Shown: positions 10,106-60,337, counted from the first letter of the stretch. The stretch is DNA of 64,000 bases from Bryobacterales bacterium (GCA_963710565.1 CAVQAN010000009.1:756965-820964), one strand, 5' to 3'. Translations and numbers: made by a program. The notes: generated from the sequence alone by a model not told the origin.

Positions 10106-10124
10106 CGTGACGATTCCGCACACG

Positions 10125-21156: not shown

Positions 21157-21342
21157 GCCGGGAAGCCAGCTCCTCGATTGCTCATTATAGAGCACGGCGG
21201 GCGGGAGCGCGCGCTGGCGGGGGTGCACAGATCGGCGCGGGAACCGGCGGTCGGGCGCGCGGGGAGGCGGAAACGGCGATCCTACGAGCCAAAACAGCTA
21301 GATTCGACAATGGTTTCGCGCTCTGCTATCCTATGATTATCC

Positions 21343-24620: not shown

Positions 24621-24691
24621 CGATGTTCGACAAGCTGTACGAACAGTGCGGATGCGGCGAACCGGCGCTCGGGGCTGCGACCAGGGTAACG

Positions 24692-34957: not shown

Positions 34958-35510
34958 CTATGGCGCGAAATACCCGTTGATGTCCAGAATCACGTGCGTC
35001 GGGTCCGTCACGTAGACGCTGATCGCCCCGCTCGTCCCCGCCGGCACGATCGCCGCGTTCGCCACCACGCTGCCGTCCCACGAGTTCAACGTCGAAACGT
35101 TCGGCTGCGACGACCCTGTTGCCCACGCCGAGAGATACGAGAGCCGCGCATCGGGCACCACCGTCAGGTTCAGCGAGTACGCCGCCGCCGTCGACGGAAT
35201 GTTGCAGGCGCTGGCCGGGATCGCAAATGAGCGCGCGGTGGCCGCAGCCATCTCCGGCCCTCCGAACGGACCCGCGGGGTTGCGCGTGTCCGCCACGCGG
35301 CACGGCGTCACCGGATAGAAGTTCAGCGCCCCCGGACTCCCCGGCGCCGCGAAGTAGCCGTTGCCGTCCAGAATCACGTCCGTCGCGTTCGAAACGTACA
35401 CGGAGATCGACTCATTCGTCCCTGCCGGGACGATCGCGGCGTTCGCCACCACCTTGCCCGTCCAGGAGTTCAGCGTCGACGCCACCGGCGGCGCCTGCCC
35501 CGTCGGCCAG
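34958..35510. repeat. ~0.55-kb near-identical DNA repeat: 3' end of paralog B, duplicated in paralog C (offset 3945)
   Basis: Off-frame ORFs 35119..35550 and 39064..39495 translate almost identically. ORF 34217..35230 ends like 38939.. begins. Read directly: >95% identity over the first ~550 nt, lower beyond. Confidence 0.75.
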
Positions 35511-38500
35511 GTGGTCAGGTAGCCCAAGTACCCGGCGGGTACCACTGTGACATTCAGCGAGTACGCCCGCGCCGTGGCCGGAAGGCCGCAGGAACTCAGG
35601 GGAATGGGAAAGTCCCGGGTCTGGCCACCGTACATAGACGGCCCGCCAAACTGGCCCGTGGGGCCCCGCGTGTCGGCGATGCGGCAGGGCGTGGCGGGAT
35701 AGAACGCATACGAGATCACGGCGCTGGGGGAATCGAAGTAGCCGTTGATGTCCAGGATCACGTCGGTCTGATCAGTGACATACACGCTAACCGCCCCACC
35801 CAAACCGGCCGGCACGATGGCCGCATTGGCCACCACGATCCCGCCCCAGGAGTTCAGAGTCGAGACCAGGGGTTGGACCTGGCCCCGCGGCCACAGCGTC
35901 AAGTAGACCAGCGGCCCGGCGGGCACCACGGTCACGTTCAACGAATACGCCTGGGCCGTCGCCGGAATGCCGCATCCGCTTTGCGGTACGCCGAAGGAAC
36001 GCCAGGAACCGGCTGTCATGGCCGGTCCGCCGAACGGCCCAACCGCGCCCCGCGTGTCCGCCACGCGGCAAGGGACTACGGGTATGAACTGCAGGCCCGC
36101 CGGCGCAGTGCCGGTCGTGAAGGACCAGGTCCCGGAATTGCCGAAACCGAAGCTGTTCAGGGCCACAATCCGCCAGTAGTAGGTGGTGTTCGGGCTGAGC
36201 GTGCCCGGGGCGTAGCTGGTGCCCGTCGTGTTGGCCACCCAGAGCGGCGTAGACGCGGTTCCAAAGTAGACGTCGTAGGACATGGCCCCACCCGAGGGGT
36301 TCCACAGCAAAGCTGAGGCGACCGGAACGCCGGTAGCTCCGTTCGGGGGAGAGACCAGAACCGGTGCTTCGGGAGCGGGTATTTCCGTCGTGAACGACCA
36401 TGTGGCCGAACTCGCCGAGTCGGTTCCGTTTCTGGCGACGACCTGCCAGCGGTAGGTAGTGCCCGCCGTCAGCCCCGCGACGCTGCAACTCGTTCCCATC
36501 GCGGTACAGGCCAAGACCAGCGGGGTCGTAGTGCCCAGGTAAACGTCGTAGGAAGCGGCTCCGGGCGAAGCGTTCCAACTCAGGGTTGGCGCCAAGGAGA
36601 CGCCCGTAGCGCCGTCGGCAGGCGCAGTGAGAACCGGCGCGGCAAGGGCGGGATAGGCTGACAGCTTGGTCACGAAGGCGTCGTATTCTCCGCCGCCGTT
36701 TGTCGTCTGAAACGCCGACTGAGTGGGAAAGTCGGTCGATTGGGTGTGCCCCGTAACGTAGGCCGCGCCCGGTCCGTCCAGCGCGATCCCTAGACCCGCG
36801 TCATCGCCGTTCCCACCCAGATACGTGCAATAGATCACCGCGTTGCCCGCCGGCGTCAGTTCCGCCACGAAAGCGTCCCAAGCGCCTCCCTGGAATGTCG
36901 CCTGGTACGCAGACTGGGTGGGGAAGTTGCTCGAAGCGGTTTGTCCCGCAATGTAGGCCGAGCCCATCCCGTCTACCGCGATCCCGTTGGCCTCATCATG
37001 GTCACTTCCACCCAGGTACGTGGAGTACAGGCAGCGCGTTACCCGACGGCGTCAGTTTCGTCACGAAGGCGTCCCAGGTTCCTCCCTGGAGTGTCGCCTG
37101 GTACGGCGACTGGGTGGGGAAGTTGGTGGAGGTGGTCTCCCCCGCCACGTAGGCCGAGCCCGCACCGTCCACCGCGATCGCCGAAGGCCTGATCGCTCCC
37201 ATTCCCGCCCAGGTAAGTGGAGTAGGACCAGCGCGTTGCCCGCCGGCGTCAGTTTCGTCACGAAAGCGTCGCAATCGCCTCCCTGGAATGTCGCCTGGTA
37301 CGCCGACTGGGTGGGGAAATTGGTCGAATAGGTAAACCCAGTGACGTAGGCCGAGCCCGCCGCGTCCACCGCGATCCCGTTGCCCTCATCATCCTTGCTT
37401 CCACCCAGGTACGTGGAGTAGACCAGCGCGTTGCCCGCCGGCGTCAGTTTCGTCACGAAAGCGTCGGCATATCCGCCTTGGTATGTCGCCTGGTACGGCG
37501 ACTGGGTGGGGAAGTTGGTCGAATCGGTGCGCCCCGTGACGTAGGCCGAGCCCGCCCGTCCACCGCGATCCCCTGGGCACATGTCGTCGTCGCTTCCACC
37601 CAGGTAGGTGGAGTAGACCAGCGCGTTGCCCGCCGGCGTCAGTTTCGTCACGAAAGCGTCGTAAGCCTCCTCCCTGGTTTGTCGCCTGGTACGGCGACTG
37701 GGTGGGGAAGTTGGTCGAAGAGGTGTACCCCGTGACGTAGGCCGAGCCCGCCCCGTCCACCGCGATCCCGTCGCCCTGGTCACTGCCGCTTCCACCCAGG
37801 TAGGTGGAGTAGACCAGCGCGTTGCCCGCCGGCGTCAGTTTCGTCACGAAAGCCGTGCTGCCGCTCCCCGTATGTCGCCTGGTACGGCGACTGGGTGGGG
37901 AAGTTGGTCGAGCCGGTGCTCCCCGTGACGTAGGCCGAGCCCGCCCCGTCCACCGCGATCCCGTAGCCCAGCTCATAGTCGCTGCCACCCAGGTAGGTGG
38001 AGTAGACCAGCACCACCGGGTCGATGCGCAACTCCCGCTTCCGGTCGTACTTCGCCAGTTCGAAGCTCACCCGGTTGCGCGCCACGATCGCGTACCGCGC
38101 CCCCACCTCCACCCGCTTCCCGCCGATCTCCTGATACACCCGCGGCTTCTGCTGCCGCACCTCGCCCAGCGCCGTCCGCAGCACCAGGTCGCCGCCCGCC
38201 TCCACTCCCAGCGACTCCACTCCCTCGTAGGCCACCTGGATCTGCTTCGCATCCGCTCCCGGCGCCACCACGAAGTCGTACTCCAACTGCCGCTGGTTGC
38301 CGTACCACACCAGGTCGATGCCTGGGTACACGCCCTCGTACTGGATGCGCGCGTAATGCGGCACGTCCGTGCGCCACTTCTTCGGGTCGTTGCCGATGAA
38401 ATAGTTGCTGATGCCAGGTAGCTTCTCCAACCCGATCACCTGCCGCGGCTGCCCCGCTCCCGCCAGCTTCATCCGCACCACTGCCTGCTCGACTTGGCTG

Positions 38501-38902: not shown

Positions 38903-39455
38903 TCATGGCGCGAAGTACCCGTTGATGTCCAGAATCACGTGCGTCGGGTCGGTCACGTAGACGCTGATCGCCCCGCTCGTCCCCGCCGGCACGATCGCCG
39001 CGTTCGCCACCACGCTGCCGTCCCACGAGTTCAACGTCGAAACGTTCGGCTGCGCCGACCCTGTTGCCCACGCCGAGAGATACGAGAGCCGCGCGTCGGG
39101 CACCACCGTCAGGTTCAGCGAGTACGCCGCCGCCGTCGACGGAATGTTGCAGGCGCTGGCCGGGATCGCAAAGGAGCGCGTGGTGGCCGCAGCCATCTCC
39201 GGCCCTCCGAACGGACCCGCGGGGTTGCGCGTGTCCGCCACCCGGCACGGTGTCACGGGATAGAACGTCAGCGCCCCCGTACTCCCCGGCGCCGCGAAGT
39301 AGCCGTTGCCGTCCAGAATCACGTCCGTCGGGTTCGAAACGTACACGGAGATCGACTCATTCGTCCCTGCCGGGACGATGGCGGCGTTCGCCACCACCTT
39401 GCCCGTCCAGGAGTTCAGCGTCGACGCCACCGGCGGCGCCTGTCCCGTCGGCCAC
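38903..39455. repeat. Second copy of the ~0.55-kb near-identical repeat (3' end of paralog C)
   Basis: See 34958..35510. Confidence 0.75.
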
Positions 39456-41470
39456 GTCGTCAGGTAGCCCAGATACCCCGCGGGCACCACCGTGACGTTC
39501 AGCGAGTAGGCGCTGGCCGTTGGCGGAAGACCGCAGGAACTGAGGGGAATCGGGAAGTCCCGGCTTTGGCCGGCCGACATGGCAGGTCCGCCAAAAGTGC
39601 CAACGGGCATCCGCGTGTCGGCGATGCGGCACGGCGTGGCGGGATAGAACGCATACGAGCTGGGGCCGGTGGAGGTGTCAAAGTAGCCGTTGATGTCGAG
39701 GATCACGTCGGTCGTATCGGGAACATAGACGCTCACCGCCCCGCCGGTCCCGGCCGGCACGATGGCCGCGTTGGCCACCACGATCCCGCCCCAGGAGTTC
39801 AGCGTGGAGACGTTGGCCTGCGCCTGCCCGGTGGGCCACAGCGTCAGGTAGTAGAGTGGCCCCTCGGGCACCACGGTCACGTTCAACGAATAGGCCTGCG
39901 CCGTTCCGGGAATGCCGCAGGGGCTCTGCGGAATCGCAAAGGAGCGAGTAGAGCCGGGCGTCATGGTGGGACCGCCGAACGGCCCAGGGGCGTTCCGTGT
40001 GTCCACCACGCGGCAAGGCGTCACGGGGACGAAGCGCAGAGCCGTCGCGCCTCCCCCTGGCTGGTTCGAGGCTTGGTTGACTGCAATCGTCAGGCCGCCG
40101 GCGGAGATCTGCGCCGAGCGCCAAGGGCCAGGGTTGGCGGCCACGTTGAGCGTGACGGTGGCCGAATCGGCGCCGCTGGCCGGACCCGCCAGAGTGACCC
40201 AATCCGGCAGGTTCGAGATGGCCCATGGGCAGCCGATGCCGGTGGCGATGGTGAGCGGATAGCTCCCCCCAGCCACTGCAGCCTGGATCGAGGTGGAAGA
40301 AACGGAGTACCTGCAGTTGGCGCCCGAAGGGGCTACGTCGTACACGCTGACGTAGGCCTGGGACTGTCTGGTTTCCTCCAGGGTCGCGGGATCGACGGTG
40401 TCGACGTCGTAGGAGACATAGACGCGCCCGTTGTGGAGGATAAGCCAGGGCCGCCCCGCCAGTGTGTTGTTCGCGAGGCTGTAGTTGGTCACCGCCACGT
40501 CGTCGATGAGATTCCAGTTAAGATCGAATGCGGCCAGGTGTACATTGAATGCCGGGGGGAGGTACTGGGGAGCGGGGCGCGTTTGGCTGTCGTCCAGGTA
40601 GGCGACGAAGAACCGGTCGCCGTCGAATGCCAGGCCCTCGGAAAACTCGCCGTACGGCCGCAACGTTTGCTTGCCAAGAAGGCGCCAACTCGTGTCGTAG
40701 TGCATCACGTCCACCTCGCCCAGGAACGCGCTGCCGGTAACCAAATGGTAGACCCCGTTGACGAAGATCATGGACGATCCGCAGATCTGCGGTGGGTTGT
40801 CCAGTATCATCCTGCCCTCCGTCACCAACGCGGGGGAGAAGAAGTAGTGGTAGGTCGCGGCTCCGGTGAAGAAATCAGGGGGCGTTCCCGAGGCGTTGTT
40901 GTTGTATTGCGAGCTGACGTCCAGTTGTCCGTTGACGAAGGCGACCATCGGATCGTTCTCGGCCTCTTGCGGATCCACGATGGAAAGGTAGATTTCGGAT
41001 TCGATCTGCCAGCTCACGGCGTCGAATTTCATGAGCTTCCAGCCATGGAAACCGGGGATTTCGGGCACGTAGTCGGGAGCCCAAGCGAAGTAGTAATCGT
41101 TCCCGACCATCACCGATCCCGAGTCGTTTGCCTCGAACCCGGCGGCGTGGTCCCGGACGAAGTAATCCGCTTGGCCGGTCGGATTCATGTCCAGGTCGTA
41201 TTCCTTATAGGCATACCCGGCTCTTTGATCGGCCGCGGAGGAGGGCGGCTTGGTGCCGAATGTCACCACCAGGCGATCCGTCGCGGGGACGTAGTTAACC
41301 CGCGCGAAACCGCCCGTTCCAAAGGTCCCATCCGGCGCCACCTGAACGGTGCGTACGAACTGAAACACTCCCGTTCCCGTGCCGGCAGTTTCGGCGTTCG
41401 CCGGGGCGCCGCCGACGGCGGCCGTTCCCGGTATGCAGACCAGCATCGCTACCGCTAGAACGCGTTTCAC
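38903..41470 (-). CDS. Paralog C of the tri-module family: signal peptide + ~400-aa unknown beta-rich (glycosidase/propeller-like?) domain + BACON-like domain + 3 C-terminal modules. Intact frame
   Basis: 855 aa, GTG start with AAGGAGG RBS. MKRVLAVAMLVCIPGTAAVGGAPANA. BACON-like CRYSVSSTSIQAAVAGGSYPLTIATGIGCPWAISNLPDWVTLAGPASGADSATVTLNVAANPGPWRSAQISAGGLTIAVNQ. Then LRFVPVTPCRVVDTR…/[13 protein letters not shown]…/[13 protein letters not shown]…INGYFAP-stop. Confidence 0.8.
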   Translation of the reverse strand: MKRVLAVAMLVCIPGTAAVGGAPANAETAGTGTGVFQFVRTVQVAPDGTFGTGGFARVNYVPATDRLVVTFGTKPPSSAADQRAGYAYKEYDLDMNPTGQADYFVRDHAAGFEANDSGSVMVGNDYYFAWAPDYVPEIPGFHGWKLMKFDAVSWQIESEIYLSIVDPQEAENDPMVAFVNGQLDVSSQYNNNASGTPPDFFTGAATYHYFFSPALVTEGRMILDNPPQICGSSMIFVNGVYHLVTGSAFLGEVDVMHYDTSWRLLGKQTLRPYGEFSEGLAFDGDRFFVAYLDDSQTRPAPQYLPPAFNVHLAAFDLNWNLIDDVAVTNYSLANNTLAGRPWLILHNGRVYVSYDVDTVDPATLEETRQSQAYVSVYDVAPSGANCRYSVSSTSIQAAVAGGSYPLTIATGIGCPWAISNLPDWVTLAGPASGADSATVTLNVAANPGPWRSAQISAGGLTIAVNQASNQPGGGATALRFVPVTPCRVVDTRNAPGPFGGPTMTPGSTRSFAIPQSPCGIPGTAQAYSLNVTVVPEGPLYYLTLWPTGQAQANVSTLNSWGGIVVANAAIVPAGTGGAVSVYVPDTTDVILDINGYFDTSTGPSSYAFYPATPCRIADTRMPVGTFGGPAMSAGQSRDFPIPLSSCGLPPTASAYSLNVTVVPAGYLGYLTTWPTGQAPPVASTLNSWTGKVVANAAIVPAGTNESISVYVSNPTDVILDGNGYFAAPGSTGALTFYPVTPCRVADTRNPAGPFGGPEMAAATTRSFAIPASACNIPSTAAAYSLNLTVVPDARLSYLSAWATGSAQPNVSTLNSWDGSVVANAAIVPAGTSGAISVYVTDPTHVILDINGYFAP

Positions 41471-41640
41471 AGCCTGTTCCTCCTTTTCAGTTCCGGAAGT
41501 CCCACGCGGGCCACACAGTAAGCTCTACTACCCTCTGCCGTGGCTGAAGTTAGGCAAAATGCGACACCACGCCGTATGTCGTCTATTGCCGTCCTCTGCC
41601 GGGAGGGGTATCCTTGTTGCGATAATCGCGGGACTCACAT

Positions 41641-43683
41641 ATGAAGCCTCTCCGGGCGAAACAGCCGGTGCAGCCGGACCCAGCCGGTGAACGGCTTGAA
41701 TCCTGGAAGGAGATCGCCCGGCACCTGAATCGCGACGTCCGAACCGTGCAGCGCTGGGAGCAGAGCAAGGATCTCCCGGTGCGGCGACTGCCCGGCGGCG
41801 ATATGGCGCGGGTCTACGCCCTGCGCTCGGAGTTGGACGCCTGGTGGAATAGCCGGGGAATCCACCTGACCCCGGGGGCGGAGGGCGCGGCGGTGGAGCC
41901 GGCAAGCGCGCCGCGCAGCCCGGCGCGGATTTGGGCGGGAGTGGCTGTGGGGCTGGCTGTGCTGGCGGCGCTGACGGTCTGGGGGCTGCACCGGAAGCCT
42001 GGCGTATCGGCGCCCCTCCGGGTCGTCCCGCTCACCAGCTTGGGCGGAGAGGTCGGTTACCCGTCGTTCTCGCCGGACGGCAAGCAGGTGGTCTTCGTCT
42101 GGAACGGAGAGAAACAGGACAACCACGACTTGTACGTCCGGCAAATCGGGGTGGGCGAACCATTGCGCCTCACCAGGGACCCGGCCATGGACTCCTGGCC
42201 CTCCTGGTCCCCCGATGGACGGCAGATCGCCTTCGTTCGCTGGCGAATCGGGCAGCCGAAGTTGGAGCTCCGGGTCATCCCGGCGCTGGGCGGAACGGAC
42301 CGGCTCCTGGCGGAACGTCCGGTCCCTGAGGTTTGGCCGGTTCCGGCGGCGAGCTGGACTCCGGATAGCCGGTGGCTGATCTGCGGTCTCCCCGGCGCCA
42401 CGACTCACACCTCGCTGGTCCTGCTATCGGTCGAGACCGGTGAACAGCGGCGCCTGACCTCGCCACCCGAGGGATGGGACGGGGACGATTCCCCCGTGCT
42501 CAGCCCGGATGGACGCCAGGTGGCGTTCATACGGCGGAACGGTGTCGAATCTGGCAATGTCTTTCTGCTTAACCTCAGGCGCGATTACAGCGCGCAAGGC
42601 GAGCCTCAACAGTTGACCCACGAGGCATGCTGCGCCGTGAATCCGCTTTGGACCGCCGACGGCAGCGAGATCCTGTACCTCACCAGCGACCAGGACATTT
42701 CGACGCTACACCGAATTCCGGCGCACCCGGGCGGGCAGCCCCGGATCGTGGATACCATCGGCGCCATGGGCAACCAGCTCGCGATCTCCCGGCAGGGCGA
42801 CAGACTGGTCTACGTCGGCGGCCAGACGGATTCCGACCTCTGGCGCGTCGAGCTTCCAAGGCACGGCGTTCCCGGCGCGACCCTCGCGGCGCGGCGGGTG
42901 CTCTCCTCCAGCCGCATGGAGGCCTTTCCGGACATTTCGCCGGACGGGAAGCGGGTGGCCTTCGGCTCGAACCGGTCGGGGACGTTCGAAGTCTGGCTGG
43001 CAGAGGCGGATGGCTCCGGCGCGGTGCAGGTGACTGCGCTGGGTGGCCCTCCCGCCCTGCTGCCGAGGTTGTCGCCGGACGGCAAACAGATCGCCTATAA
43101 CGCCAACCTGGATGGAAGCCGGGATGTCTACGTCGTCGGCGCCGAGGGTGGAGTTCCTCGCCGCCTGACGCGGGCCTCCGGGGGTAACATAGCGCCCACC
43201 TGGAGCCGGGACGGGAAGTGGGTTTACTTCGCCAGTGGCCGCAGCGGGAGCTTCCAATGCTGGAAGGCCCCGAGCGATGGGGGCGCCGCCACCCAGATCA
43301 CCAGGAACGGCTGTTTCGGTGGGTTCGAGTCCGTGGACGGTCGAAGCCTGTACTATGCGAAGGATTGGGGCCCAGCGCCGATCTGGCAGGTTCCCGCGGG
43401 CGGCGGGGAAGAGCGGCCCGTCGGTCCCGCGGTCGAGACTTTCCGGGTTCCATGGAACTTCGCAGTGACCGCGGGCGGGATCTACACCCCGGCGACCACG
43501 AATCCGCTGGCCGGCTTCGAGGTGAGGTTCTATTCGTTCGCCACCGGAGCCACCGAGATTCTGGGAAGAGTCGAGAAACCGTTTGGGCGCTCCATGTCGG
43601 TCTCTCCGGACGGCCGCTGGCTGCTCTTCCAGGACTACCCGGCGCGCCGCGGTGACCTGATGCTGGTGGAGAACTTCCGGTAG
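41641..43683 (+). CDS. Membrane-anchored transcriptional regulator: N-terminal HTH DNA-binding domain + single TM helix + periplasmic TolB-like (PD40/WD40-like) beta-propeller
   Basis: 680 aa. GERLESWKEIARHLNRDVRTVQRWEQSKDLPVRRL (Acidobacteria-type HTH). TM IWAGVAVGLAVLAALTVWGL. Repeated SPDGKQ/SPDGRQ/SWSPDG…(V/I)AF motifs typical of TolB/PD40 blades. Embedded inside the paralog cluster. Confidence 0.7.
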   Translation: MKPLRAKQPVQPDPAGERLESWKEIARHLNRDVRTVQRWEQSKDLPVRRLPGGDMARVYALRSELDAWWNSRGIHLTPGAEGAAVEPASAPRSPARIWAGVAVGLAVLAALTVWGLHRKPGVSAPLRVVPLTSLGGEVGYPSFSPDGKQVVFVWNGEKQDNHDLYVRQIGVGEPLRLTRDPAMDSWPSWSPDGRQIAFVRWRIGQPKLELRVIPALGGTDRLLAERPVPEVWPVPAASWTPDSRWLICGLPGATTHTSLVLLSVETGEQRRLTSPPEGWDGDDSPVLSPDGRQVAFIRRNGVESGNVFLLNLRRDYSAQGEPQQLTHEACCAVNPLWTADGSEILYLTSDQDISTLHRIPAHPGGQPRIVDTIGAMGNQLAISRQGDRLVYVGGQTDSDLWRVELPRHGVPGATLAARRVLSSSRMEAFPDISPDGKRVAFGSNRSGTFEVWLAEADGSGAVQVTALGGPPALLPRLSPDGKQIAYNANLDGSRDVYVVGAEGGVPRRLTRASGGNIAPTWSRDGKWVYFASGRSGSFQCWKAPSDGGAATQITRNGCFGGFESVDGRSLYYAKDWGPAPIWQVPAGGGEERPVGPAVETFRVPWNFAVTAGGIYTPATTNPLAGFEVRFYSFATGATEILGRVEKPFGRSMSVSPDGRWLLFQDYPARRGDLMLVENFR

Positions 43684-43870
43684 CTTGCGGCCGGGTTACT
43701 CGACATAGACGCATTGGACGCGAGGGCCGATGCGTAACGGCCCGGTCTTGAGCCAGTCGGCGAGTCTCCAGCGAAGCGCCCGCGGCTGCTTGCCCTACGG
43801 CGCGAAACACCCGCTGACGTCGAGGATCGCGTGGGCGTCGTTGGTCACGAAGATGGACGGCCCGGGCGTG

Positions 43871-44886
43871 CTACGGCGCGAAATAGCCGTTGATATCGAG
43901 AATTACCTGCGTCGGGTCTGTCACGTAGACGCTGATCGCCCCGCTCGTCCCCGCCGGCACGATCGCCGCGTTCGCCACCACGCTCCCGTCCCACGAGTTC
44001 AACGTGGAGACGTTCGGCTGCGCCGACCCCGCCGCCCACGCCGAGAGGAACGAGAGCCGCGCGTCGGGCACCGCCGTCACGTTCACCGAATACGCCGCCG
44101 CCGTCGACGGAATGTTGCAGGCGCTGGCCGGAATGGCGAAAGAGCGCGTCGTGGCCGCCGCCATCTCCGGCCCTCCGAACGGGCCCGCGGGGTTGCGTGT
44201 GTCCGCCACGCGGCACGGCGTCACCGCGTAGAACGTCAGCGAGCCCGTACTGCCCGGCGGCGCGAAATAGCCGTTGCCGTCCAGAATCACGTCTGTCGGA
44301 TTCGAGACGTACACCGAGATCGACTCGTTGGTCCCCGCCGGGACGATCGCGGCGTTCGCCACCACCTTGCCCGTCCAGGAGTTCAGCGTCGACGCCACCG
44401 GCGGCGCCGATCCCGTCGGCCAAGTGGTCAAAAAGCCCAGATAGCCTGCCGGAACCACCGTGAAATTGAGCGAGTACGCGCTCGCCGTTGGCGGAAGACC
44501 GCAGGAACTGAGGGGGATCGGGAAGTCGCGGCTTTGGGCGGCCGACATCGTAGGTCCGCCGAACGTGCTCGCGGGCATCCGCGTGTCGGCGATGCGGCAC
44601 GGTGTGGCGGGATAGAACGCATACGAACTGGGGCCGGTGGAGGTGTCGAAGTAGCCGTTGATATCCAGGATCAGGTCGGTGGTATCGGGGACATAGACGC
44701 TCACGGCCCCGCCGCTACCGGCCGGAACGATGGCCGCGTTGGCCACCACGATCCCGCCCCAGGAGTTGAGCGTGGAGACGTTGGCCTGCGCCTGCCCGGT
44801 GGGCCACAGCGTCAGGTAATAGAGCGGACCCTCGGGCACCACCGTCACGTTCAACGAATAGGCCTGAGCCGTGTTCGGGAATGCCG
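43871..44886. repeat. ~1.0-kb near-identical (about 97%+) DNA repeat: 3' end of paralog D, duplicated in paralog F
   Basis: Constant offset of 12383 nt to 56254..57268. Identical off-frame ORFs on both strands (43730..45001 vs 56290..57303; 44004..44231 vs 56387..56614; 44197..44463 vs 56580..56846; 44428..44622 vs 56811..57005). Identity collapses abruptly at ~44886/57268. Confidence 0.8.
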
Positions 44887-47800
44887 CAGCCTCCTTGCGG
44901 AATCGCAAAGGATCGGGTGGAGTCCGCCGCAAGCGAGGGACTGCCGAACGGCCCGCCGGGGCCGCGCGTGTCCACCACGCGGCAGGGAGTTACCGGGATG
45001 AACCGGAGGCCTACCGCCGGCACGCCCGTCGTGAAGGACCACATCCCGGAACTGGCCGTCCCGCCGGCGTTCCGCGCCGCGACCTGCCAGTAGTAATTAT
45101 TGTTCGCGTTCAGCGTGCCCGGAGCGTAACTGGTGGCGGTCGTGTTCGTCACCCAAGGCGGCGCGGACGAAGCGCCGAAGTAAACGTCATACGACGTGGC
45201 CCCGGTTGAAGCGTTCCAGGCCAGGGTCGGCGCTGTCACCACGCCGATGGCTCCGTTCGACGGACCAGTCAGACCCGGCGCCGCGGGCGGGGCGACGATG
45301 TTGGTCGTAGCGCTGGCGCTGGTCGGCGCCGAGCCTCCCCCCGACAGACTTATCTGACTGGTCACCTGGGAAGGCGCGTCTGCCGCGACGTTCACCGTTA
45401 CGGTGATGGGCGGAAAGCTGGCCCCTGGCTGGAGCACATCGCTGCGGGTGCAGGTGTTACCCGAGCAGTTCCAGCCCGTGCCCGACATGGAGACCAGCGT
45501 CAGGCCGGTGGGGTCGGTCACCGTCACCGTGCCGTTGGTCGGTGCGGCGCCCGCGGCGTTGCTCACCACCACGGAGTAGGTCGCCCCCGTTTGTCCCGGT
45601 GTGAAGGCTTCGGGCTGCGTGACGCTGACACTCAAGAGTGAGCTCGTCCCCTGGGGCACCAGCAGCCGGATCACACTGCTCGAGGGGTCCGCGATGTAGA
45701 TCCTGCCGGCGGCGTCCACCGCGAGGCCATAAGGAGAATCAAGCTGGGCGCTGGTGGCCGGGCCGCCATCGCCTGAGTAGCCTCTCGTTCCGCTCCCCGC
45801 GACCGTCGTGATTGTGCCATCGGTCGCCACCTTGCGGATTCTGCTATAGCAGGGATCCGCGATGTAGAGATTGCCGGCCGCATCCACCCCCACACCATCG
45901 GGGCAGATCTGCGCGGCGGTGGCCGGACCTCCGTCGCCTGGAGACGCCGAGCCTCCGCCCGCCACGGTAGTGATGACGCCTGTCGCCGCCGCCACCATGC
46001 GAATCCGATAGTTGTAGAGGTCCGCGATGTAGAGATTGCCGGCGGCATCGAGCGCCACGCCGGTCGGGGAGAATAGCTGGGCGCTGGTAGCCAGACCGCC
46101 GTCGCCCAGCCCCGACGTGCCACCCCCGGCCACCGTCGTGATGATGCCGGTCGCCGCCGCCACCATGCGGATCCGGTTGCCGAACTGCTCCGCAATGTAA
46201 AGGTTGCCGGCTGCATCCACCGCCAAGGCCGAAGGGAAATCGAGCTGGGCCGCGGTGGCCGGGCCGCCATCCCCCAATCCAGACGTGCCACCTCCGGCCA
46301 CGGTTGTGATGGTCCCATTGACGGATACCTTGCGGACCAACTGCCCGTCATCGAAGTAGACGTTGCCCGCGGCATCCAGCGCCACGCTGTAAGGGTCACC
46401 GGCTCCCGCCACGGTCGTGATGGTGCCATCAGGCGCCGCTTTGCGGATGCGGACGTTCTTACTGTCGGCTATATAGAGGTTCCCGCGGGCGTCCACCGCC
46501 ACACCGTAAGGGTTGCTGAGGCCGGCGCTGGTGGCCGGGCCGCCGTCGCCGAATCCCGCGCTGCCGTTCCCCGCCAAGGTCGTAACGGTGCCATTGGCCG
46601 CCACCCTGCGGATCACGTTGGCATTCGTGTCCACTGCGTATAGATTCCCGGCGCCGTCCACCGCCACGCCCAAGGCTGAGGTCCACACGGTCGTGATGAT
46701 GCCATTGGGTGCCACCTTGCGGATATAGCCGTCTGAGATGTAGAGGTTTCCGGCGCCGTCCAGGGCCAGGTCCAAAGGTTGACCGATTCCGGCCGGCCCC
46801 GCTATCGTCGTGATGATGCCCGTCGTCGCCGCCACCTTGCGGACCCGGTTGTTGACGGAATCCGCGATGTAGAGATTGCCGGCGGTGTCCACCACCACGC
46901 CTGAAGGAACGGCGAGTTCCGCACTCGTGGCCGGTCCCCCGTCCCCTGAGTAGCCAAAGGTTCCGGTCCCCGCTACCGTTGTAACGGCGCCATTGGCCGC
47001 CACCTTGCGGATCGCGTTGTCGGGGAGATCCGCGATATAGACGTTGCCCTCGACGTCCACCGCGACGCCCCAAGGCTCGTAGGTTCCCTGTCCCGCCAGC
47101 GTCGTGATGGTGCCATCCGGCGCCACCTTGCGAATCGCCGAGTTCCAGTAGTCCGCGATGTAGACGTTGCCGGCGGCGTCCACGGCCACCCCGCGAGGGT
47201 TATCCAGTCGAGCGTCAATGGCCGGGCCGCCGTCGCCCGAGTAGCCCCCGACTGCTGAGCCCGCCACGCGGGCGAGAGCTCCCGAGCCGTCCACTTTGAA
47301 TACCCAGTTTCCGGAGCTGAAGTATACGTTGCCTTGCCCGTCCACGGCGACGGCCTGCGGAGCGGAAAGCGGCGCGCTCGCGGCCGGGACCCCCGAGGGC
47401 GGAACCCCGCCGCCCGCCACTGTCGTGATCAGATACTGCACGGCGACCGGCGGCGCGCCCGTCGTGAACGACCAGGTCGCGGAAACGGCAGAACCGGCGG
47501 CATTATGCGCCGCGATCTGCCAGTAGTACGTAGTGCCCGCGTTCAGCGTGCCGGGAGCGTACCTGGTCGCCGCCGTGCTCGTCACCAGGGGCGGCGGGGA
47601 TGAGGCGCCAAAGTAGACGTCGTAGGACGCAGCCCCGGTTGAGGCGTTCCAGACCAGAGTCGGCGCTAACACAACGCCCCCAGCTCCGTTCCCTGGCGAA
47701 GCTAGCGCAGGCGTCGCGGGCGGCGCGGCGATGTTAGTCGTAGCGCTGGCGCCGGTCGGTACCGAGCCTCCCCCCGACAACGTGATCTGACTGATCACCT

Positions 47801-50800
47801 GGGAGGGAGCATCCGCGGCGACGTTCACGGTCACGGTAATGGGTGGAAAGCTGGAGCCGGGCTGGAGCACGTCGCTGCGCGTGCAGGTGTTGCCCGAGCA
47901 GTTCCAGCCCGTGCCCGACATGGAAACCAGCGTCAAACCGGTGGGTACGATCTCGCTCACCGTCACCGTGCCGCCGGTCGGTCCGGCGCCCGCGGCGTTG
48001 CTTACCGCCACTGAGTAGGTGGCTCCGGTCTGCCCCGGTGTGAAGGCAGCGGGCTGGGTTACACTGACACTCAGCAGCGAACTTGTCCCCTGCGGCACGA
48101 GCAACCGGATCACATTGTTGTCGGTATCCGCGATGTAGATCCTGCCGGCGGCATCCACCGCGACGCCATAAGGGTAATTGAGTTGGGCAACGGTGGCCGA
48201 GCCGCCGTCGCCTGAGTACCCCGCGGTTCCGGTCCCCGCTACCGTCGTGATCGTCCCATCGATCGCAACCTTGCGGATCCGATGGTTGCAAGTGTCCGCG
48301 ACGTAGAGGCTGCCTGCGCCGTCCGCCGCTACGCCCGAAGGGGAGTTGAGTTGCGCGCTGATTGCCGGACCGCCATCTCCCGCGTAGCCCCCGGTTCCGT
48401 TCCCCGCGACGGTCGTTATCGTGCCATTGGGCGCCACTTCGCGAACCCGGTTGTTGCCACAGTCCGCGATGAACAGGTTGCCGGCAAGATCCACGGCCAC
48501 GCCTGCAGGCGCGTTGAGCTGCGCGCCGGTGGCCGGGCCGCCGTCGCCCGAGAATCCCGCGGTTCCGTTCCCCGCCACGGTCGTGATCGTCCCATCGACC
48601 GCAACCTTGCGGACCCGGTAGTTGTAGGTATCCGCGATGTAGAGATTGCCGGCGGCATCCACGGCCACGCCCTGCGGCATATTGAGTTCGGCGCTGGTGG
48701 CCGGGCCGCCGTCGCCCGAGAAGTCATAGTCGCCGGTCCCCGCCACGGTCGTGATGGTGCCATTGGCCACTTTTCGAATCACGTTGTCGAGCTCGTCAGC
48801 GATGTAGAGGTTGCCGGCCGCGTCCGTCGCCACGCCGGCTGGGAGGTCGATCCCGGCGCTGGTGGCCGGGCCGCCGTCGCCAGAGTACCCCCAGTTCACG
48901 CCACCCGCTGCCGTCGTAATGGTGCCATCGGTCGCCACCCTGCGGACCACGTTGTCGACGGTGTCCGCGATATAGATGTCGCCAGCGGCATCCACCGCCG
49001 CGCCTTCAGGCCCGTAGAGCTGCGCGCCGGTGGCTGGACCTCCGTCGCCCGAGTATTCCCTTCCGCTCCCCGCCGCCGTCGTAATGGTGCTATGGACATC
49101 CACCTTTCGAATCACGTAGTCGGCGCCATCCGAGATGTAGAGGTTGCCGGCGGTATCTACTGCAATGCCATCCGGGTGGAGTTCGGCGCTGGTGGCCGGG
49201 CCGCCGTCACCCGAGTAGCCCCGCTTGCCGTTCCCCGCCACCGTAGTGATGATGCCATTCGCCGCGACCTTGCGAACCCTGTCTGCGCCCCTTTCCGCTA
49301 TGTAGAGGTTGCCGGCGGCGTCCAGCGCCACGCTGTCAGGGCTGGCGAGTTCGGCGCTTGTAGCCGGGCCGCCGTCGCCTGAGTGGCAGCACTTCCCATC
49401 GCCCGCCACCGTCGTGATGATGCCATGGACATCCACCTTGCGGACCGCCTCGTTGTTGCTGTCCGCAATGTAGAGATTTCCGGCGGCATCCACTGCCACG
49501 CCCAAAGGGTTCTTGAGCTGGGCGCTGGTGGCCAAGCCCCCGTCGCCCGAATAGCCATAGCCGCCGTTCCCCGCCACAGTCGCGATCGAGCCATTGGCCG
49601 CCACCTTGCGGATCACGTTGTTGCCGTAGTCCACGATGTAGAGGTCGCCCGCGCGATCCGCCGCGACGCCCCAGGGTCGGGACAGTTGGGCGCTGGTGGC
49701 CGAGCTGCCGTCGCCAGAATAGCCCTGGGTTCCGTTCCCCGCCACGGTCGTGATGGTGCCGTTGGGGGCCACCATGCGGATCACGCTGTTCTCGGTATCG
49801 GCAATGTAGAGGTTGCCGGCGCCATCGACCGCCACGCCTATAGGGTCCCCGAGTTGGGCGCTGGTGGCCGGGCCGCCGTCGCCTGAATAGCCGCCGCCGG
49901 TTGAACCTGCCACGCGCGTGAGAACTCCCCCACTGTCAACCCTGAACACAGAGTTGGCCGCAGCGAAATAGAAGTTCCCCTGCCCGTCCGCCGCGACGCC
50001 CCACGGCTGAAACGACGCGCTCACGGCTGGCACCCCCGAGGGCGGCAGCCCACCGCCCGCCACCGTCGTGATCAGATACTGCACGGCTGCGACTGGCGCA
50101 CCCGTGGTGAACGACCACGTTGCGGAACTGGCCGTCCCCGCTACGTTACGGGCCACAACCTGCCAGTAGTAGGTGGTACCGGAATTCAAGATGCCCGGAG
50201 TGTAAGTGGTCGCCGTCGTGTTAGAGGCCATGGTTGGCGGAGATGAGGCGCCAAAGTACAGGTCATAGGACGTCGCCAGGCTCGCAGTGTTCCACACCAG
50301 AGCCGGCGCGAGCGCCACGCCGGTGGCTCCGTCCGCTGGGGAGCTCAAGACTGGCGCTACCGGAGCCGGTACGAGCGTCGTAAACGACCAGGTATCGGAA
50401 CTCGCCGTGCCCGCGCTGTCTCTGGCCACAACCTGCCAGTAGTAGGTCGTGCCCGCGGACAGCGTCCCAGGACTATAACTCGTCCCCGTGGTGTTGGTGA
50501 CGAAAGACGGAGGAGTTGCGGTACCCACATGAACGTCGTAGGAAGTGGCCCCGGCAGCAGCGCTCCAACTCAATGAAGGCGTACGGGGGACGCCGGTAGC
50601 GCGGTTGGCGGGCGCCGTGAGGATTGGCGCGGAATTGCCAGTCTCGGTCCAGGTCCCGGGCGCCCCCGACACGGAGGCCTCCTGACATGGAACACTGCCG
50701 CCGCACCAGATCTGGGACGTGTCGGCGCCGGTGGAGACGAATCCGTATTCGCTAAACAATAGCGGGTATGGACAAACCACACCGTACACGCCAGAGCAAG

Positions 50801-51917
50801 CGCCGGCGGGGTATTGCGCGCCGAAATCCCAACCAATGATGCCGCCAGACGCGTCTGTGGTGACACCGAGACTGCCGACATCCCCGCCGCCTGAGGAGTA
50901 ATCTGTCACTTGGTCGGACACCGCCCAACTGACGGGGACAACGGGCTGCTGCAGAAGGTTGGCCGGCAGAGGTTTAGCGAACGTGAACGAGGCAGTGATG
51001 AAGTCCGCATTCGTGAGAGGGTAGGAATTGATGCCGGAGTTTTCGCTATTGACGTCGTTGAAGTGGCTGCCGGTGTACGTGTAAATCACGGCGCCTGCCT
51101 CTGCGACCAGCGTCGTAAACGACCAGGTATCGGAACTCGCCGTGCCCGCGCTGTTTCTGGCCGCAACCTGCCAGTAGTAGGTCGTGCCCGCGGACAGCGT
51201 CCCAGGACTATAACTCGTCCCCGTCGTGTTGGTGACGAAAGACGGAGGAGTCGCGGTGCCCACATAAACGTCGTAGGAAGTAGCCCCGGTAGCAGCGCTC
51301 CAACTCAACGAAAGCGCAAGGGGGACGCCAGTAGCGCCGTTGGCGGGCGCCGTGAGGAACGGCGCGGAATTGCCGGTCTCAGTCCAGGTCCCGGGCGCCC
51401 CCGACACGGAGGCCTCCTGACATGGAACACTGCCGCCGCACCAGATCTGGGACGAGTCGGTGCCGGTGGAGACGAATCCGTATTCGCTAAACAATAGCGG
51501 GTATGGACAAACCACACCGTACGCGCCAGAGCATGCGCCGGCGGGGTATTGCGCGCCGAAATCCCAACCAATGATGCCGCCAGACGCGTCGGTGGTGACA
51601 TCGAGACTGCCGATGTCCCCGCCGCCTGAGGAGTAAGTTGTCACTTGGTCGGACACCGCCCAACTGACGGGGACAACGGGCTGCTGCAGAAGGTTGGCCG
51701 GCAGAGGTTTAGCAAACGTGAACGAGGCAGTGATGAAGTCCGCATTCGTGAGAGGGTAGTGGTTGATGCCGGGGTTGCCGTTGTTGAAGTCGTTGAAGTG
51801 GTTGCCGGTGTACGCGTAAGTTACGGCGCCGGCCTTTGCGGCTGGTGAGGCGGCTAGCGACACCAGCGCGCCAAGAACGAGCGAGAGAGCTGTGCGGGAA
51901 GTGCGTGTGGACATCAT
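43871..51917 (-). CDS. Paralog D of the tri-module family (giant, >2650 aa): signal peptide + duplicated N-terminal domain + Fn3s + ~40 NHL repeats + DUF11-like + Fn3 + ~20 NHL + DUF11-like + Fn3 + 3 C-terminal modules. Apparent 1-bp frameshift near 44870
   Basis: ORF 44715..51953 (2412 aa). NHL consensus repeated (ITTVAGNGT.GYSGDGGPATSAQL..P.GVAVDAAGNLYIAD..NNRIRKV). DUF11-like YSVAVSNAAGAGPTGGTVTVSEIVPTGLTLVSMSGTGWNCSGNTCTRSDVLQPGSSFPPITVTVNV. Frame breaks inside module 1 (…GCGIPEHG…). ORF 43871..44932 continues …[12 protein letters not shown]… through modules 2-3 to INGYFAP-stop. Confidence 0.75.
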
Positions 51918-51940
51918 GCTCCTGTCGCTCCGAGAGTGAA
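50480..51940. repeat. Internal ~732-bp tandem duplication (2 units) encoding the N-terminal domain + Fn3 of paralog D
   Basis: Off-frame ORFs 50570..50881 and 51305..51601 translate near-identically at a 732-nt offset. In-frame protein shows AVTYAYTGNHFNDFNNGNPGINHYPLTNADFITASFTFAKPLPANLLQQP… repeated as AVIYTYTGSHFNDVNSENSGINSYPLTNADFITASFTFAKPLPANLLQQP…. Confidence 0.6.
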
Positions 51941-52229
51941 ATGGGACTTCCATTTTGGCTCCCGGCTTCGAGTCACTTTATCACAAGCCGCCCATCTTGA
52001 GTTCCCATCGCCCCTTGGAAACCCCGCCAATGACTGGCGGGATTCCCATAGCTCCGACGGCGGTTTGCTTGTTTGGAAGACGCGGAGACCAGGCCGCTCC
52101 GGCGGTCGGGCTGTCGCTCTCCCGCCGCCAGCCAAGCAGGAGCAGGTCAGGTAGCAAAAGACCCGGAAAGGAGGCTCGCCGCGAACCGCACGATATCGAA
52201 GCGCGTAGCGGATCGTGGTCGGCTATCCC

Positions 52230-55200
52230 TTACGGCGCGAAGTACCCGTTGATGTCGAGAATCACGTGCGCCGGGTCCGTCACGTAGATGCTGATCGCTC
52301 CACTGGTCCCCGCCGGCACGATGGCGGCGTTGGCCACCACGCTGCCGTCCCACGAGTTCAGGGTCGAAACCACCGGCGCGCCCGAACCCGCCGGCCAGGC
52401 CGAGAGGAAAGAAAGCCGCCCGTCGGGCACGACTGTTACGTTTAGCGAGTACGCCGCTGCCGTCGAGGGGATGTTGCAGACACTGGCCGGGATCGCGAAC
52501 GAGCGCGTCGTCCCCGCCGCCATCTCCGGACCGCCGAACTGGTCGGCGGGATTGCGCGTGTCCGCCACCCGGCACGGTGTCACCGGGTAGAACGACAACG
52601 CCCCCGCGCCCCCCGGCGCGGCAAAGTACCCGTTGCCGTCGAGAATCACGTCCGTCGGGTCGGAGGCGAACACCGAGATCGATCCATTGGTCCCCGCCGG
52701 CACAAGCGCGGCATTCGCCACCACCTTGCCGGTCCAGGAATTCAGCGTGGAGGCGTTGGGCTGAGCCTGCCCCGTTGGCCAAGTGCTTAAAAAACCGAGA
52801 TAGTTCGTGTCCGGCACCGCCGTGACATTCAACGAGTAGGCCCGTACCGTGGCTGGGAAGCCACAGGAACTCATGGGAATGGGAAAACCCCTGGTCTGGC
52901 CGCCGTACATGGAAGGCCCTCCGAACTGGCCGGTGGGGCTTCGGGTGTCGGCGATGCGGCACGGCGTGACGGGATAGAACAAATACGAAGTCGGGCCACT
53001 GGAGGTGTCGAAGTAGCCGTTGATGTCCAGGATCACGTCGGTCGCATCGGGGACGAAGACGCTCACTGCCCCGCCCGTCCCGGCCGGAACGATGGCGGCG
53101 TTGGCCACCACGATCCCGCCCCAGGAGTTCAGGGTGGAGACGTTGGCCTGCACCTGCCCGGTGGGCCACAGCGTCAAGAAGTAGAGCGGCCCCTGCGGCA
53201 CCACCGTCACGTTCATCGAATACGCCAGAGCCGTGCCCGGGATACCGCATGGGCTCTGGGGAACGGGAAACGAGCGCGAAGAATTGGCCGTCATGGTCGG
53301 CCCGCCAAACACCCCGGCCCCGCCCCGGGTATCCGCCACGCGGCATGGGGTCACCGGAATGAAGTGCAGGCCAACTACCGCGACGCCCGTCGTGAAGGAC
53401 CACGTCGCGGAGGGAGTAGATCCGACATCGTTCTGGGCCACCACCTGCCAGTAGTACGTCGTGCCCGGGAGCAGCGCCCCGGGTGCGTAACTGGTGCCGG
53501 TCGTGGTCCCGATCAAGGGTGGCGGAGAGGATGTTCCGAAGTGGACTTGGTAGAAGGTCGCGCCGCTTGCGGCCTTCCAGTCCATCATCGGCGCGAGCAC
53601 GACACCGCCAGCCTCGTTGCCCGGAGACACCAGAACGGGCGCGGCGGGCGGTGGAATGACGTTGTCCGAATCGCTGGTACCGGTTGCCGGTGAGCCACCG
53701 CCCGACACGGAGGCGTAATTCACCACCTGCGTACCCCCGGTCGCGACCGCGCTCACGGCCGCCGCCACCGTGATGGGAGGATAGCTGGAGCCGGCACTCA
53801 GCACATCGGCGCGCGTGCAGAAGGAACTCGAGCAGCTCCAGCCCGTGCCGCTCATGGACACCAGCAGCAGACTGGTGGGGAGCGAGTCCGTCACCAACAC
53901 GGTGCCGCTCGTGGCCCCCGCCCCGGCGGCGTTGCTCACCACCACGGAGTACGTCGCATTCTGCCCCCGCCCCCAGCCTTCGGGAGTGGGTCTTGGCGGC
54001 CATCAGAAGGGCATGCGATCCACCCGGCGTCAGCACCCGCACAGCGCCGTTGAGCTCGTCGGCGATGTAGACGTTGCCGGCTGTGTCCAAGGCCACGTCA
54101 TCGGGCTGCTGGATGGTGGCACTGGCCGCTGGGCCTCCATCGCCCGTGTACCCCCCTCCGCGCACCAGCGATGAGATGTTGCCATCGAGACCCACCTTGC
54201 GAATCGTCTCGTTATTGCAGTCCGCGATGTAAATGTTGCCGGAGGCATCCACCGCCACGGCCACGGGGGAGTTGAGGCTGGCGGCGGTCGCCGGCCCTCC
54301 GTCGCCCCGGTAGCCCTGGGTACCGTTGCCGGCCACCGTGGTGATGGTGCCGTTGGCCGACACCTTGCGGATCGCGTTGTTCCCGCAGTCGGCAATGTAG
54401 AGGTTGCCGGCGGCGTCCACCGCTACACCCTCCGGGTATTTGAGCTGAGCGGAGGTGGCCGCCCCTCCGTCGCCCGAGAAGCCCTGGGTACCGTTGCCGG
54501 CCACCGTCGTGATGATGCCGCCCGCCGTTACTTTGCGAATCCTGGAGTTGCCGGTGTCCGCGATGTAGACATTCCCGGCAGCATCCACTGCTACACCCAG
54601 AGGCGCGCAGAGTTCGGCGCTGGTGGCGGGTCCTCCATCGCCCAAGGAGCCATAGCAGTTGCCGGTGCCGGCCACCGCGGTGATGGTGCCGGTGGCCGCC
54701 ACCTTGCGAATCCTGTTGTTGCCCTCGTCGGCAATGTAGAGGTTGCCGGCGGCATCCACCGCTATACCCCACGGGTCGTCGAGCTGAGCGGAGGTGGCCG
54801 GGCCATTGTTGCCCGAGTAGCCCCTCGTGCCGTTGCCCGCCGCAACCGCGACTGTGCCATTTGCGGCTACCTTAAATACCCGGTACGCGACAACGTCCAC
54901 GATGAATAGATTGCCGGAGGCATCGGCCGCCACGGCAGTGGGGCCGCCCAGCGGAACGGCGGTCGCCGGACCTCCGTCGCCGGGGTAACTGAACATCCCG
55001 TTGCCCGCTACGGTCGAGATGGCGCCACTGCCCCCCACCTTTCGAATCCGTGCGTTGCCCGAGTCCGTCAGGTAGAGGTTGCCGGCCGAGTCCACCGCCA
55101 GGCCGTCCGGGTAATCCAGTTGGGCGCTGCCAGCCGGAGCTCCGTCGCCCGAGAAGCCCCGGGTACCGCTGCCGGCCACCGTGGTGAGGGTGCCGTTGGC

Positions 55201-56100
55201 CGCCACTTTGCGAATCCGTTGGTTGTTCGTGTCGGCAATGTAGAGGTTGCCGGCGGCATCCATCGCCACGCCCTGGGGACCGTTGAGCTGGCCGCTGGCC
55301 GCGGGGCCTCCATCGCCCGAGTAGCCATAGGTTCCGTTGCCCGCCACCGTGGTGATGGTGCCGTTGGCCGCCAGCTTGCGAATGCTGTTGCTGCCCTCGT
55401 CGGCAATGTAGAGGTTGCCGGCGGCGTCCACCGTGACGCCCTGAGGCCAGCCGAGCTGGGCGCTGGGCGCTGGACCTCCGTCACCAGAATAGCCATAGGT
55501 GCCGTTGCCGGCCACCGTGGTGATGGTGCCGTTGGCCGCCACTTTGCGAATCCTGTTGTTGCCCTCATCGGCAATATAGAGGTTGCCAGCGGCGTCCACC
55601 GTCACGTCCTGAGGCCAGCCGAGCTGGGCGCTGGGCGCGGGACCTCCGTCACCAGAATAGCCATAGGTGCCGTTGCCGGCCACCGTCGTAATAATGCCGT
55701 CGACACCCACCCTGCGAACGCGGTTGGCCCCGGGGTCGGTGAAGTACACATTCCCTGCGACATCCACAGCGACGCCGTTGGGCCATGTCAATTGGGCGTC
55801 GGCAGCCAGCCCTCCGTCGCCCGGATCCGGCCCGGGCGTAGCACTCCCCGCCAGGCGCGTCAGAAGCCCCGTGCCGTCGACCTTGAACACCCAGCGGCCC
55901 GCGGTGAGATACACGTTTCCGGCGGTGTCGGCCGCGACCTTCTGCGTGTTGAGCAATCCCACGCTCACAGCCGCAGCCGGTGTGCGCGGTGCCGCCCCCT
56001 CCGCCACCGTCGAGATCAGGTACGACTGGGCCCAAGCGGCGGTCGCGGACACCACAAGTACAACCGTCGCGAACACTCGCGTTGGGAACTTGAGGATCAT
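52230..56100 (-). CDS. Paralog E of the tri-module family: signal peptide + ~24 NHL repeats + DUF11-like + Fn3 + 3 C-terminal modules. Apparent 1-bp frameshift near 54000
   Basis: ORF 52147..56100 has MILKFPTRVFATVVLVVSATAAWAQ + NHL repeats and goes off-frame after …VRVLTPGGSHALLMAAKT. ORF 52230..53945 (…VVSNAAGAGATSGTVLVTDSLPTSLLLVSMSGTGWSCS… Fn3 … three PCRVADTR modules …INGYFAP) continues in the adjacent frame. Confidence 0.75.
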
Positions 56101-60200: not shown

Positions 60201-60337
60201 TTGACCGGCTTCAAGCCGGCCATCCTGACTGTTTGGTCCTTATCCTTATCTCCATCGCACTCTTCACAGCCTGTGAGGACCAACGCCATCGCCACGACCA
60301 GCAAGCGAGTGCTCTTCCGTAAGCGTGTGTGTTTCAT
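56254..60337 (-). CDS. Paralog F of the tri-module family: lipoprotein signal + ~16 FG-GAP/VCBS repeats + DUF11-like + Fn3 + 3 C-terminal modules. Apparent frameshift near 58480-58560
   Basis: MKHTRLRKSTRLLVVAMALVLTGC (lipobox). FG-GAP repeats (DFNGDGK.DLAVA…G.G.GTF) fill ORF 57098..60502, which goes off-frame after …VTVPVGAYPFGGV. ORF 56254..58494 continues with FG-GAP (…DLNGDGKPDLVVG…), DUF11-like, Fn3 and three modules ending INGYFAP. Confidence 0.75.

Follow-up and report, generated by a model that had tools for sequence, protein, structure and literature searches.

The 3′ ends of four tandem paralogs (B, C, D, and F) in the DNA analyzed here have probably been homogenized by recurrent intragenomic gene conversion, which best explains the pattern of identity in the cassette that these genes share. 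The DNA is a stretch of 64,000 nt from a Bryobacterales bacterium (GCA_963710565.1 CAVQAN010000009.1:756965-820964), hereafter the window, and positions are counted from its first letter. Homogenized synonymous sites, sharp breakpoints, and switches of the nearest neighbor along the cassette point to gene conversion and not to purifying selection. The process is a known one, and what is new is its example in an unannotated protein family and in a free-living host. Gene conversion in surface-protein paralogs is well known from pathogens; a case in a peat or soil acidobacterium would mean that the process is not dependent on immune evasion.

Gene content of the window

The window has a GC content of 66%. 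Six paralogs (A–F) were found, each having a C-terminal 384-aa cassette of three 128-aa modules, which are predicted to fold as β-sandwiches. Five of them (B–F) are large exported proteins encoded on the minus strand at 34958–60502, and their cassette DNA comprises 1.15 kb (three 384-nt modules). The preliminary description had counted five copies, which is right for the minus strand; a sixth, diverged copy (A) lies on the plus strand. The paralogs were as follows:

115–2091, plus strand: paralog A, BACON-like N-terminal part and diverged cassette (943–2088)
34958–38480, minus strand: paralog B, SBBP repeat array, two fn3-like domains, and cassette (34958–36103)
38903–41470, minus strand: paralog C, intact, 855 aa, with signal peptide, unannotated body, BACON-like domain, and cassette (38903–40048)
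43871–51953, minus strand: paralog D, two NHL propeller blocks, fn3-like domains, and cassette (43871–45011)
52230–56100, minus strand: paralog E, NHL propeller, DUF11-like and fn3-like parts, and cassette (52230–53378), with a frameshift near 53975–53990
56254–60337, minus strand: paralog F, lipoprotein-type signal, FG-GAP/VCBS propeller, DUF11-like and fn3-like parts, and cassette (56254–57399), with a frameshift near 58433

After its frameshift is bridged, D is ~2,700 aa long and carries about 30 NHL repeats in its two blocks. Public gene calls on the 1,591,142 bp contig show the same fragments (B, 669 aa; E, 571 aa; D, 292 aa; F, 746 aa). The N-terminal regions had been described as unrelated. 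The bodies do differ, and certain segments are shared: an fn3-like domain just 5′ of the cassette is common to B, D, E, and F, a DUF11-like segment to D, E, and F, and NHL repeats to D and E. The cassette of A has 62% amino-acid identity to that of F and was not homogenized, and A was used as the baseline copy inside the window.

The array is adjoined by a PD40/Tricorn-like gene (41641–43683), the nearest relatives of which come from Bryobacterales/Bryobacteraceae fen and peat metagenome-assembled genomes (MAGs) at 73–78% amino-acid identity; the host is therefore an acidobacterium of that family.

Several other features of the window were recorded. The N-terminal part of D contains a 735-nt tandem duplication (50371–51105 and 51106–51840, minus strand, 93.9% identity), each unit of which consists of an unannotated domain and an fn3-like domain. 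A 333-aa ORF (28030–29031, minus strand) is a full-length match to the Pfam family Volactin (PF25216, E 8.7e-80), a name that we take to come from an archaeal actin homologue, and the adjoining 661-aa ORF (31008–32993) is, judging by its sequence, a putative flotillin/SPFH-like protein. An intergenic repeat of ~150 nt is present at 10127–10276 and 16674–16822 (plus strand, 91% identity), and its terminal inverted repeats are GTAGTGCGTCGC...GCGACGCACCAC. The repeat gave no Rfam match and resembles a MITE-like element or a small structured RNA; Rfam and tRNA scans of the whole window were empty.

Identity tracts and their boundaries

The identity between D and F and between B and C was determined by self-BLAST, fixed-offset comparison, and multiple alignment, all of which were concordant. 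The features that define the tracts were the following:

43908–44833, minus strand: perfect D/F tract, D side, 926 nt with zero differences, likely recipient
56291–57216, minus strand: perfect D/F tract, F side, identical to 43908–44833, likely donor
44872–44874, minus strand: 1-nt insertion in D, CCCGAACACGGC against CCCGGA-ACGGC in C and F, splitting D into two ORFs
34958–35510, minus strand: B/C tract, B side, 97.3% identical to 38903–39455, with the breakpoint 552 nt from the stop codon
38903–39455, minus strand: B/C tract, C side, partner of 34958–35510

The near-identity of D and F at an offset of 12383 was reproduced by all three methods. On the 3′ side, D and F differ only at 43886, 43895, 43904, and 43907, and the perfect tract ends 37 nt before the homology does. 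Beyond its other end, single mismatches at 44834 and 44867 are followed by the indel at ~44873. D has private variants to either side of the tract. The identity had been described as collapsing within ~10 nt at this boundary. The drop is real and leads to about 72%; the apparent collapse is largely due to the ungapped comparison, which at a fixed offset crosses the 1-nt insertion in D. In a gapped alignment, the homology continues for ~640 nt upstream at 66–78%, and D and F share ~1.66 kb of homology in all.

At an offset of 3945, B and C are 97.3% identical over 552 nt, with 15–17 scattered mismatches in the first 550 nt from the stop (~97%), the count depending on how the stop codon and the terminal columns are treated. 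Upstream of the 552-nt breakpoint, they are 77.9% identical. The offset and the identity agree with the preliminary description, which had placed the end of both tracts in module 1; the D/F boundary is inside module 1, and the B/C boundary is inside module 2. In the last 350 nt, identity is 97.1% for B/C, 98.9% for D/F, and 91–92% for B or C against D or F. The range of 88–97% that had been given for all five minus-strand paralogs over this segment does not apply to E, which is 82.9–84.3% identical to the other copies.

In every pair, the E pairs included, identity falls ~1000–1040 nt from the stop, and the first 40–50 codons of module 1 are just 64–73% identical in all comparisons. A tract ending where divergence is too high is what is expected of homologous recombination, and the D/F tract may thus have ended where the copies were too divergent for strand exchange.

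At the other end, the stop codon marks the exact start of the cassette homology, and the sequences downstream of it are unrelated, which excludes a segmental duplication. A mobile element was considered and rejected because of this exact start and because neither a transposase nor an integrase is found next to the array. It is also highly improbable that D and F owe their identity to a recent duplication or unequal crossing-over. They are direct repeats in one tandem array, and the length of their shared homology would be compatible with such an origin, but the identity is limited to an internal 926-nt block with divergent flanks (D-private variants on the 3′ side, 72% identity upstream, unrelated sequence past the stop), one crossover would extend identity into one flank, and the N-terminal domain types differ (NHL in D, FG-GAP in F). 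The D/F tract is thus internal and non-reciprocal.

Off-frame ORFs that translate identically in the D/F region do exist, as had been reported (for example, 43730–45001 and 56290–57303, plus strand). They are a trivial by-product of DNA identity at 66% GC. Functional antisense ORFs were rejected, as a mirror frame is expected in high-GC coding DNA.

Synonymous sites, breakpoints, and mosaic structure

The earlier reading of conserved synonymous sites as a sign of conversion was borne out. The proportion of synonymous differences (pS) per 43-codon segment was 0.00 in D/F codons 86–344 and 0.03–0.13 in B/C codons 215–385, against 0.2–0.6 outside the tracts of these two pairs and in the other pairs. 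In a Sawyer-type permutation runs test, 253 consecutive polymorphic sites were concordant in D/F (P<1e-4). The B/C tract was also detected (P=0.003), as was a separate 64-nt tract common to B and D/F (P about 0.001). Sharp boundaries, and not a uniform divergence, were confirmed by the best single breakpoints, located 996 nt from the stop in D/F (Fisher P=6e-36) and 552 nt from the stop in B/C (Fisher P=3e-25); for B against D or F, the best breakpoint was at 538 nt and was highly significant.

The grouping of the copies changes from module to module. In module 3, B, C, D, and F are mutually closest (92–99% amino-acid identity). In module 2, C, D, and F group at 95–100%, with B at 87–91%. In module 1, the cluster consists of C and F (92%) and D (87–89%) only, and B is closest to foreign proteins. 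E and A remain at the level of foreign sequences in all three modules, as do three other cassette proteins of the same contig. The pattern is thus a nested mosaic of B, C, D, and F that is most pronounced at the 3′ end and weakens toward module 1.

Two observations point to D as the likely recipient of the latest tract. First, at three of the four D-private sites F agrees with B, C, and E. Second, the similarity between C and F is unbroken across the 5′ tract boundary, where that between C and D falls. The E cassette sits between the identical D and F, yet it is only about 82% identical and has very few shared 31-mers; conversion apparently no longer reaches a copy as diverged as E. Identity to F is just about 75% in other cassettes of the same 1.59-Mb contig. 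Given these copies and the unconverted E, the homogenization is local and incomplete.

Recombination-free explanations of the identity, namely strong purifying selection or a codon or RNA-structure constraint, are effectively refuted. The cassette protein is indeed highly conserved (36 invariant positions per module in 15 modules), and conservation peaks in the last 100–200 nt also in unrelated loci (85–91%). Yet the D/F synonymous sites are identical, the breakpoints are sharp and pair-specific, and copies A and E as well as eight control pairs, all encoding the same conserved protein, differ at 14–28% of nucleotides.

The controls were drawn from 80 metagenome loci encoding close relatives of the cassette, seven of which had two neighboring full cassettes; the eighth pair came from a related long-read contig (L082). 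The eight neighbor pairs have 72–86% DNA identity, and their longest identical runs are 29–52 nt. Selection at the protein level alone therefore does not hold the DNA identical, as the preliminary description had argued, and the B/C/D/F group is exceptional against these eight loci, in a comparison where recent tracts are under-sampled since short-read assemblies break at long identical repeats. A genome scan that started from the PD40 gene yielded no sister strain; the best match had 78% amino-acid identity, the cassette genes were without synteny, and the cassette was seen at 0 of 80 loci. The exact pattern of the D junction was absent from the JGI metagenomes scanned.

The long-read contig L082 (5.4 Mb) contains a further arrangement at 4365–11380, where a peptidase_S8-NHL gene (4365–8165), a DDE transposase (8110–9900), and a 459-aa cassette-only ORF (10001–11380) follow each other on the same strand. 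The row resembles a cassette gene interrupted by an insertion sequence. About 5 kb farther downstream lies another cassette gene, with 83% identity between the two cassettes.

Assembly quality and frameshifts

The assembly carries consensus indels, as essential single-copy pur genes in the window are broken. In purF (24563–26108), a frameshift at ~25620 puts the GATase and PRTase parts in different frames; purM (15650–16663) is shifted at ~15793 and purL (22406–24620) at ~24075; and purN (14876–15345) has an in-frame stop between compensating shifts at ~15322–15345. In the SBBP array of B (36660–38010, minus strand), six 195-nt units measure 193, 196, 195, 196, 197, and 195 nt. The array has 7–8 indels in 1.2 kb, and every unit is a good repeat in some frame. 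Either the consensus failed locally in these repeats, or B is a very recent pseudogene with a cassette still refreshed by conversion. E and F have one frameshift each, outside the cassette. A 392-aa ORF (20050–21228, minus strand) combines GreA (N and C domains) with a CDP-alcohol phosphatidyltransferase; it probably represents two genes joined by a sequence error that removed a stop codon.

The frameshift in D is most likely a consensus error, since similar ones occur in purN, purM, purL, and purF. A programmed frameshift or a true pseudogene is not preferred for D, the essential purine genes being equally defective. Of eight estimated frameshift sites (including 44873, 58433, ~53985, 15793, 25620, and 15343, all positions approximate), six are at most 4 nt from CGAA/TTCG, and 16% of all positions in general are within 6 nt of this motif. 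The frameshifts in D and F are both at CCGAAC. They may be due to systematic base-calling error at a modified motif, and the source is probably a noisy, long-read MAG. All frameshifts in the window are thus suspect and cannot be read as biology. The D frameshift had been pointed out for its closeness to the breakpoint; it does lie near, 39 nt from the end of the perfect tract, and if it is a consensus error, this closeness is coincidental and, given the indel density of the window, unremarkable.

The perfect identity of D and F could in principle be an artefact of assembly or polishing, in which a ~90%-similar repeat was given one consensus twice; the older mosaic would still be real. We regard this as unlikely, though less so than the other alternatives. 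It would fit the many consensus indels in both unique housekeeping genes and repeats, the position of the D indel next to the tract end, and the Flye-style contig names of related records, which suggest long-read MAGs. Zero differences in 2 × 926 nt are also mildly surprising, as about one random error would be expected by our rough extrapolation from the indel density of the purine cluster. Several points argue the other way. A collapse should have taken in all four copies, B, C, D, and F being ~90% alike, but identity is seen in D and F only, and B and C have retained their scattered substitutions. Uniquely anchored long reads would normally span a 1-kb repeat whose partner is 12.4 kb away. 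The D indel shares its motif with the unrelated frameshift in F, which indicates systematic base-calling error and not a stitching scar. Finally, the tract stops short of the end of the homology, and D-private variants located there recur in an independent assembly. The older mosaic, with 91–97% identity, is not a collapse artefact because the copies are similar, not identical.

The independent evidence is the Logan contig ERR11594402_277791, a k-mer assembly of run ERR11594402 retrieved via the PD40 gene; exact searches with the products of C and the flotillin-like gene and with the public products of D, E, and F gave no record. Exactly 4000 nt long, it equals 39902–43901 at 100% and includes the D-private bases 43886 and 43895. 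Its left end is the first unique 31-mer past a 56-nt run shared by C and F. The right end (43901) matches no repeat in the window and may be due to a strain variant or to a further paralog in another part of the genome.

The cassette domain

The cassette had no Pfam match even at E≤10, no NCBIfam match, and no sequence match in the PDB. Profiles of the T9SS CTD, PEP-CTERM, the autotransporter barrel, SLH, CWB2, and TIGR03437 did not match it in the Pfam and NCBIfam scans. The cassette family is large: at least 6,400 proteins were matched, and among the matches listed, the N-terminal partners include GH16 glucanase, peptidases, CarboxypepD_reg, BACON, and fn3, and further YD, NHL, FG-GAP, HAF, and DUF11. 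A single-module profile gave 30,176 clusters at 50% identity (E≤1e-3), with three matched stretches in nearly all of the best 150 of these clusters. Exactly three modules were found in 126 of the 132 homologous proteins retrieved. The cassette forms the extreme C-terminus in 128 of them, typically ending in GYFAP (exceptions include P0016 and P0003). The invariant pattern of each module is PCR..DTR ... GGP ... R.F ... S.C ... STxNSW.G.VVAN ... I.D..GYF.

The AlphaFold2 model of the cassette was confident and compact (pLDDT 94.6, pTM 0.92), with eight strands per module, and the predicted module fold is a β-sandwich (jelly-roll). When the model was compared with single-chain C1q, TNF, and Cbln1 trimers, 183–201 residues were aligned with low TM-scores. 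A viral fold library gave just generic triple jelly-roll matches (picornavirus polyproteins and tail proteins, TM about 0.2).

We infer that the cassette may act as a pseudo-trimeric head, formed naturally by a single chain, for a common binding partner that is either external or part of the cell's own envelope. The N-terminus of F has a lipoprotein signal (LVLTGC), which hints that this end would be anchored and that the cassette would be distal. More tentatively, and with clearly less confidence than in the conversion itself, the cassette may be proposed as an abundant undescribed domain, a single-chain fibre-tip or C1q/TNF-like head, serving as a shared ligand-binding or envelope-docking unit, with 3′-anchored conversion keeping clustered copies matched to one partner. 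Acidobacteriota, a dominant soil phylum of which little is understood, have the cassette at the end of tens of thousands of large exported proteins, and its ligand, once known, would annotate a large block of "hypothetical" surface proteins.

Proposed course of the conversions

In the proposed mechanism, the cassette DNA of the tandem, same-strand genes B, C, D, and F would have been repeatedly overwritten by non-reciprocal homologous recombination. One or more older events would have made C, D, and F about 91% alike across about 1.02 kb. Later, the last ~550 nt of B would have been converted by a C-like donor, leaving this part 97% identical to C today. A tract of at least 926 nt would then have been copied very recently from F to D, the direction being the one suggested by the D-private bases and the similarity to C. 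The tracts would begin within the strongly conserved 3′ part, in which exact runs of at least 31 nt are common to the copies, and halt at sequence that is too divergent, namely the first 40–50 codons of module 1. The conversion was presumably carried out by RecA-type recombination, and the clustered copies could thereby keep one common ligand-binding or anchoring head.

Comparison with known systems

In Helicobacter pylori, the 3′ segments of babA/babB, homA/homB, and sabA/sabB are homogenized within strains by intragenomic recombination (Pride & Blaser 2002, via PMC3960876). The two cases are alike in combining divergent 5′ and middle segments with homogenized 3′ segments in one genome, in having non-reciprocal tracts, and in the conserved C-terminal part that is common to a family of exported surface proteins. 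They differ in that the shared part is a predicted soluble triple β-sandwich here and not a β-barrel membrane domain, and in that the genes lie in one tandem array in a free-living soil or peat acidobacterium with no host immune pressure. The present case also rests on one genome. The literature search yielded nothing relevant on gene conversion in Bryobacteraceae, on run ERR11594402, or on the C-terminal domains of acidobacterial NHL/FG-GAP proteins.

The preliminary description had compared the genes to a mirror image of Rhs/CDI systems, with passenger domains swapped onto a common anchor. This holds as an analogy only, as no exchange of N-terminal bodies was seen in the window. Only the general idea of recombination at a constant/variable boundary in large exported proteins is shared with Rhs/CDI, and the polarity is inverted, the constant part being C-terminal here. 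The window proteins have no RHS/YD or VENN features, toxin tip, immunity gene, or orphan cassettes; their Pfam domains are NHL, FG-GAP, SBBP, fn3, BACON, and DUF11 only, and each stop is followed by unrelated sequence.

With the tip of Bdellovibrio Bd2133 (8OK3/8OND, PMC10769870), the single-chain C1q head (5HZF), and single-chain APRIL-BAFF (4ZCH), the cassette shares β-sandwich modules of ~120–130 aa, which are predicted in our case. Like fibre tips, it ends a long modular protein, with three modules that are predicted to pack compactly. Unlike in the trimeric fibre tip and the C1q and TNF heads, the three protomers are fused in one natural chain, and there is no sequence similarity and no Pfam C1q or TNF match. 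In Bdellovibrio fibres, the tip is the variable part, whereas the cassette is the constant part here.

Triple-repeat modules that anchor proteins to the cell surface include SLH (three domains) and CWB2 of Clostridioides difficile (three repeats). Like these, the cassette has three tandem repeats at one terminus, predicted to form a pseudo-trimer, combined with many functional regions and occurring in many paralogs per genome. Unlike them, it has a different predicted fold, no sequence relationship, and a diderm host, and the lipobox of F suggests that the cassette may be distal. If the tentative reading of the cassette as a shared head is true, it would serve dozens of different acidobacterial surface proteins and be a diderm counterpart of the triple-repeat principle of SLH and CWB2.
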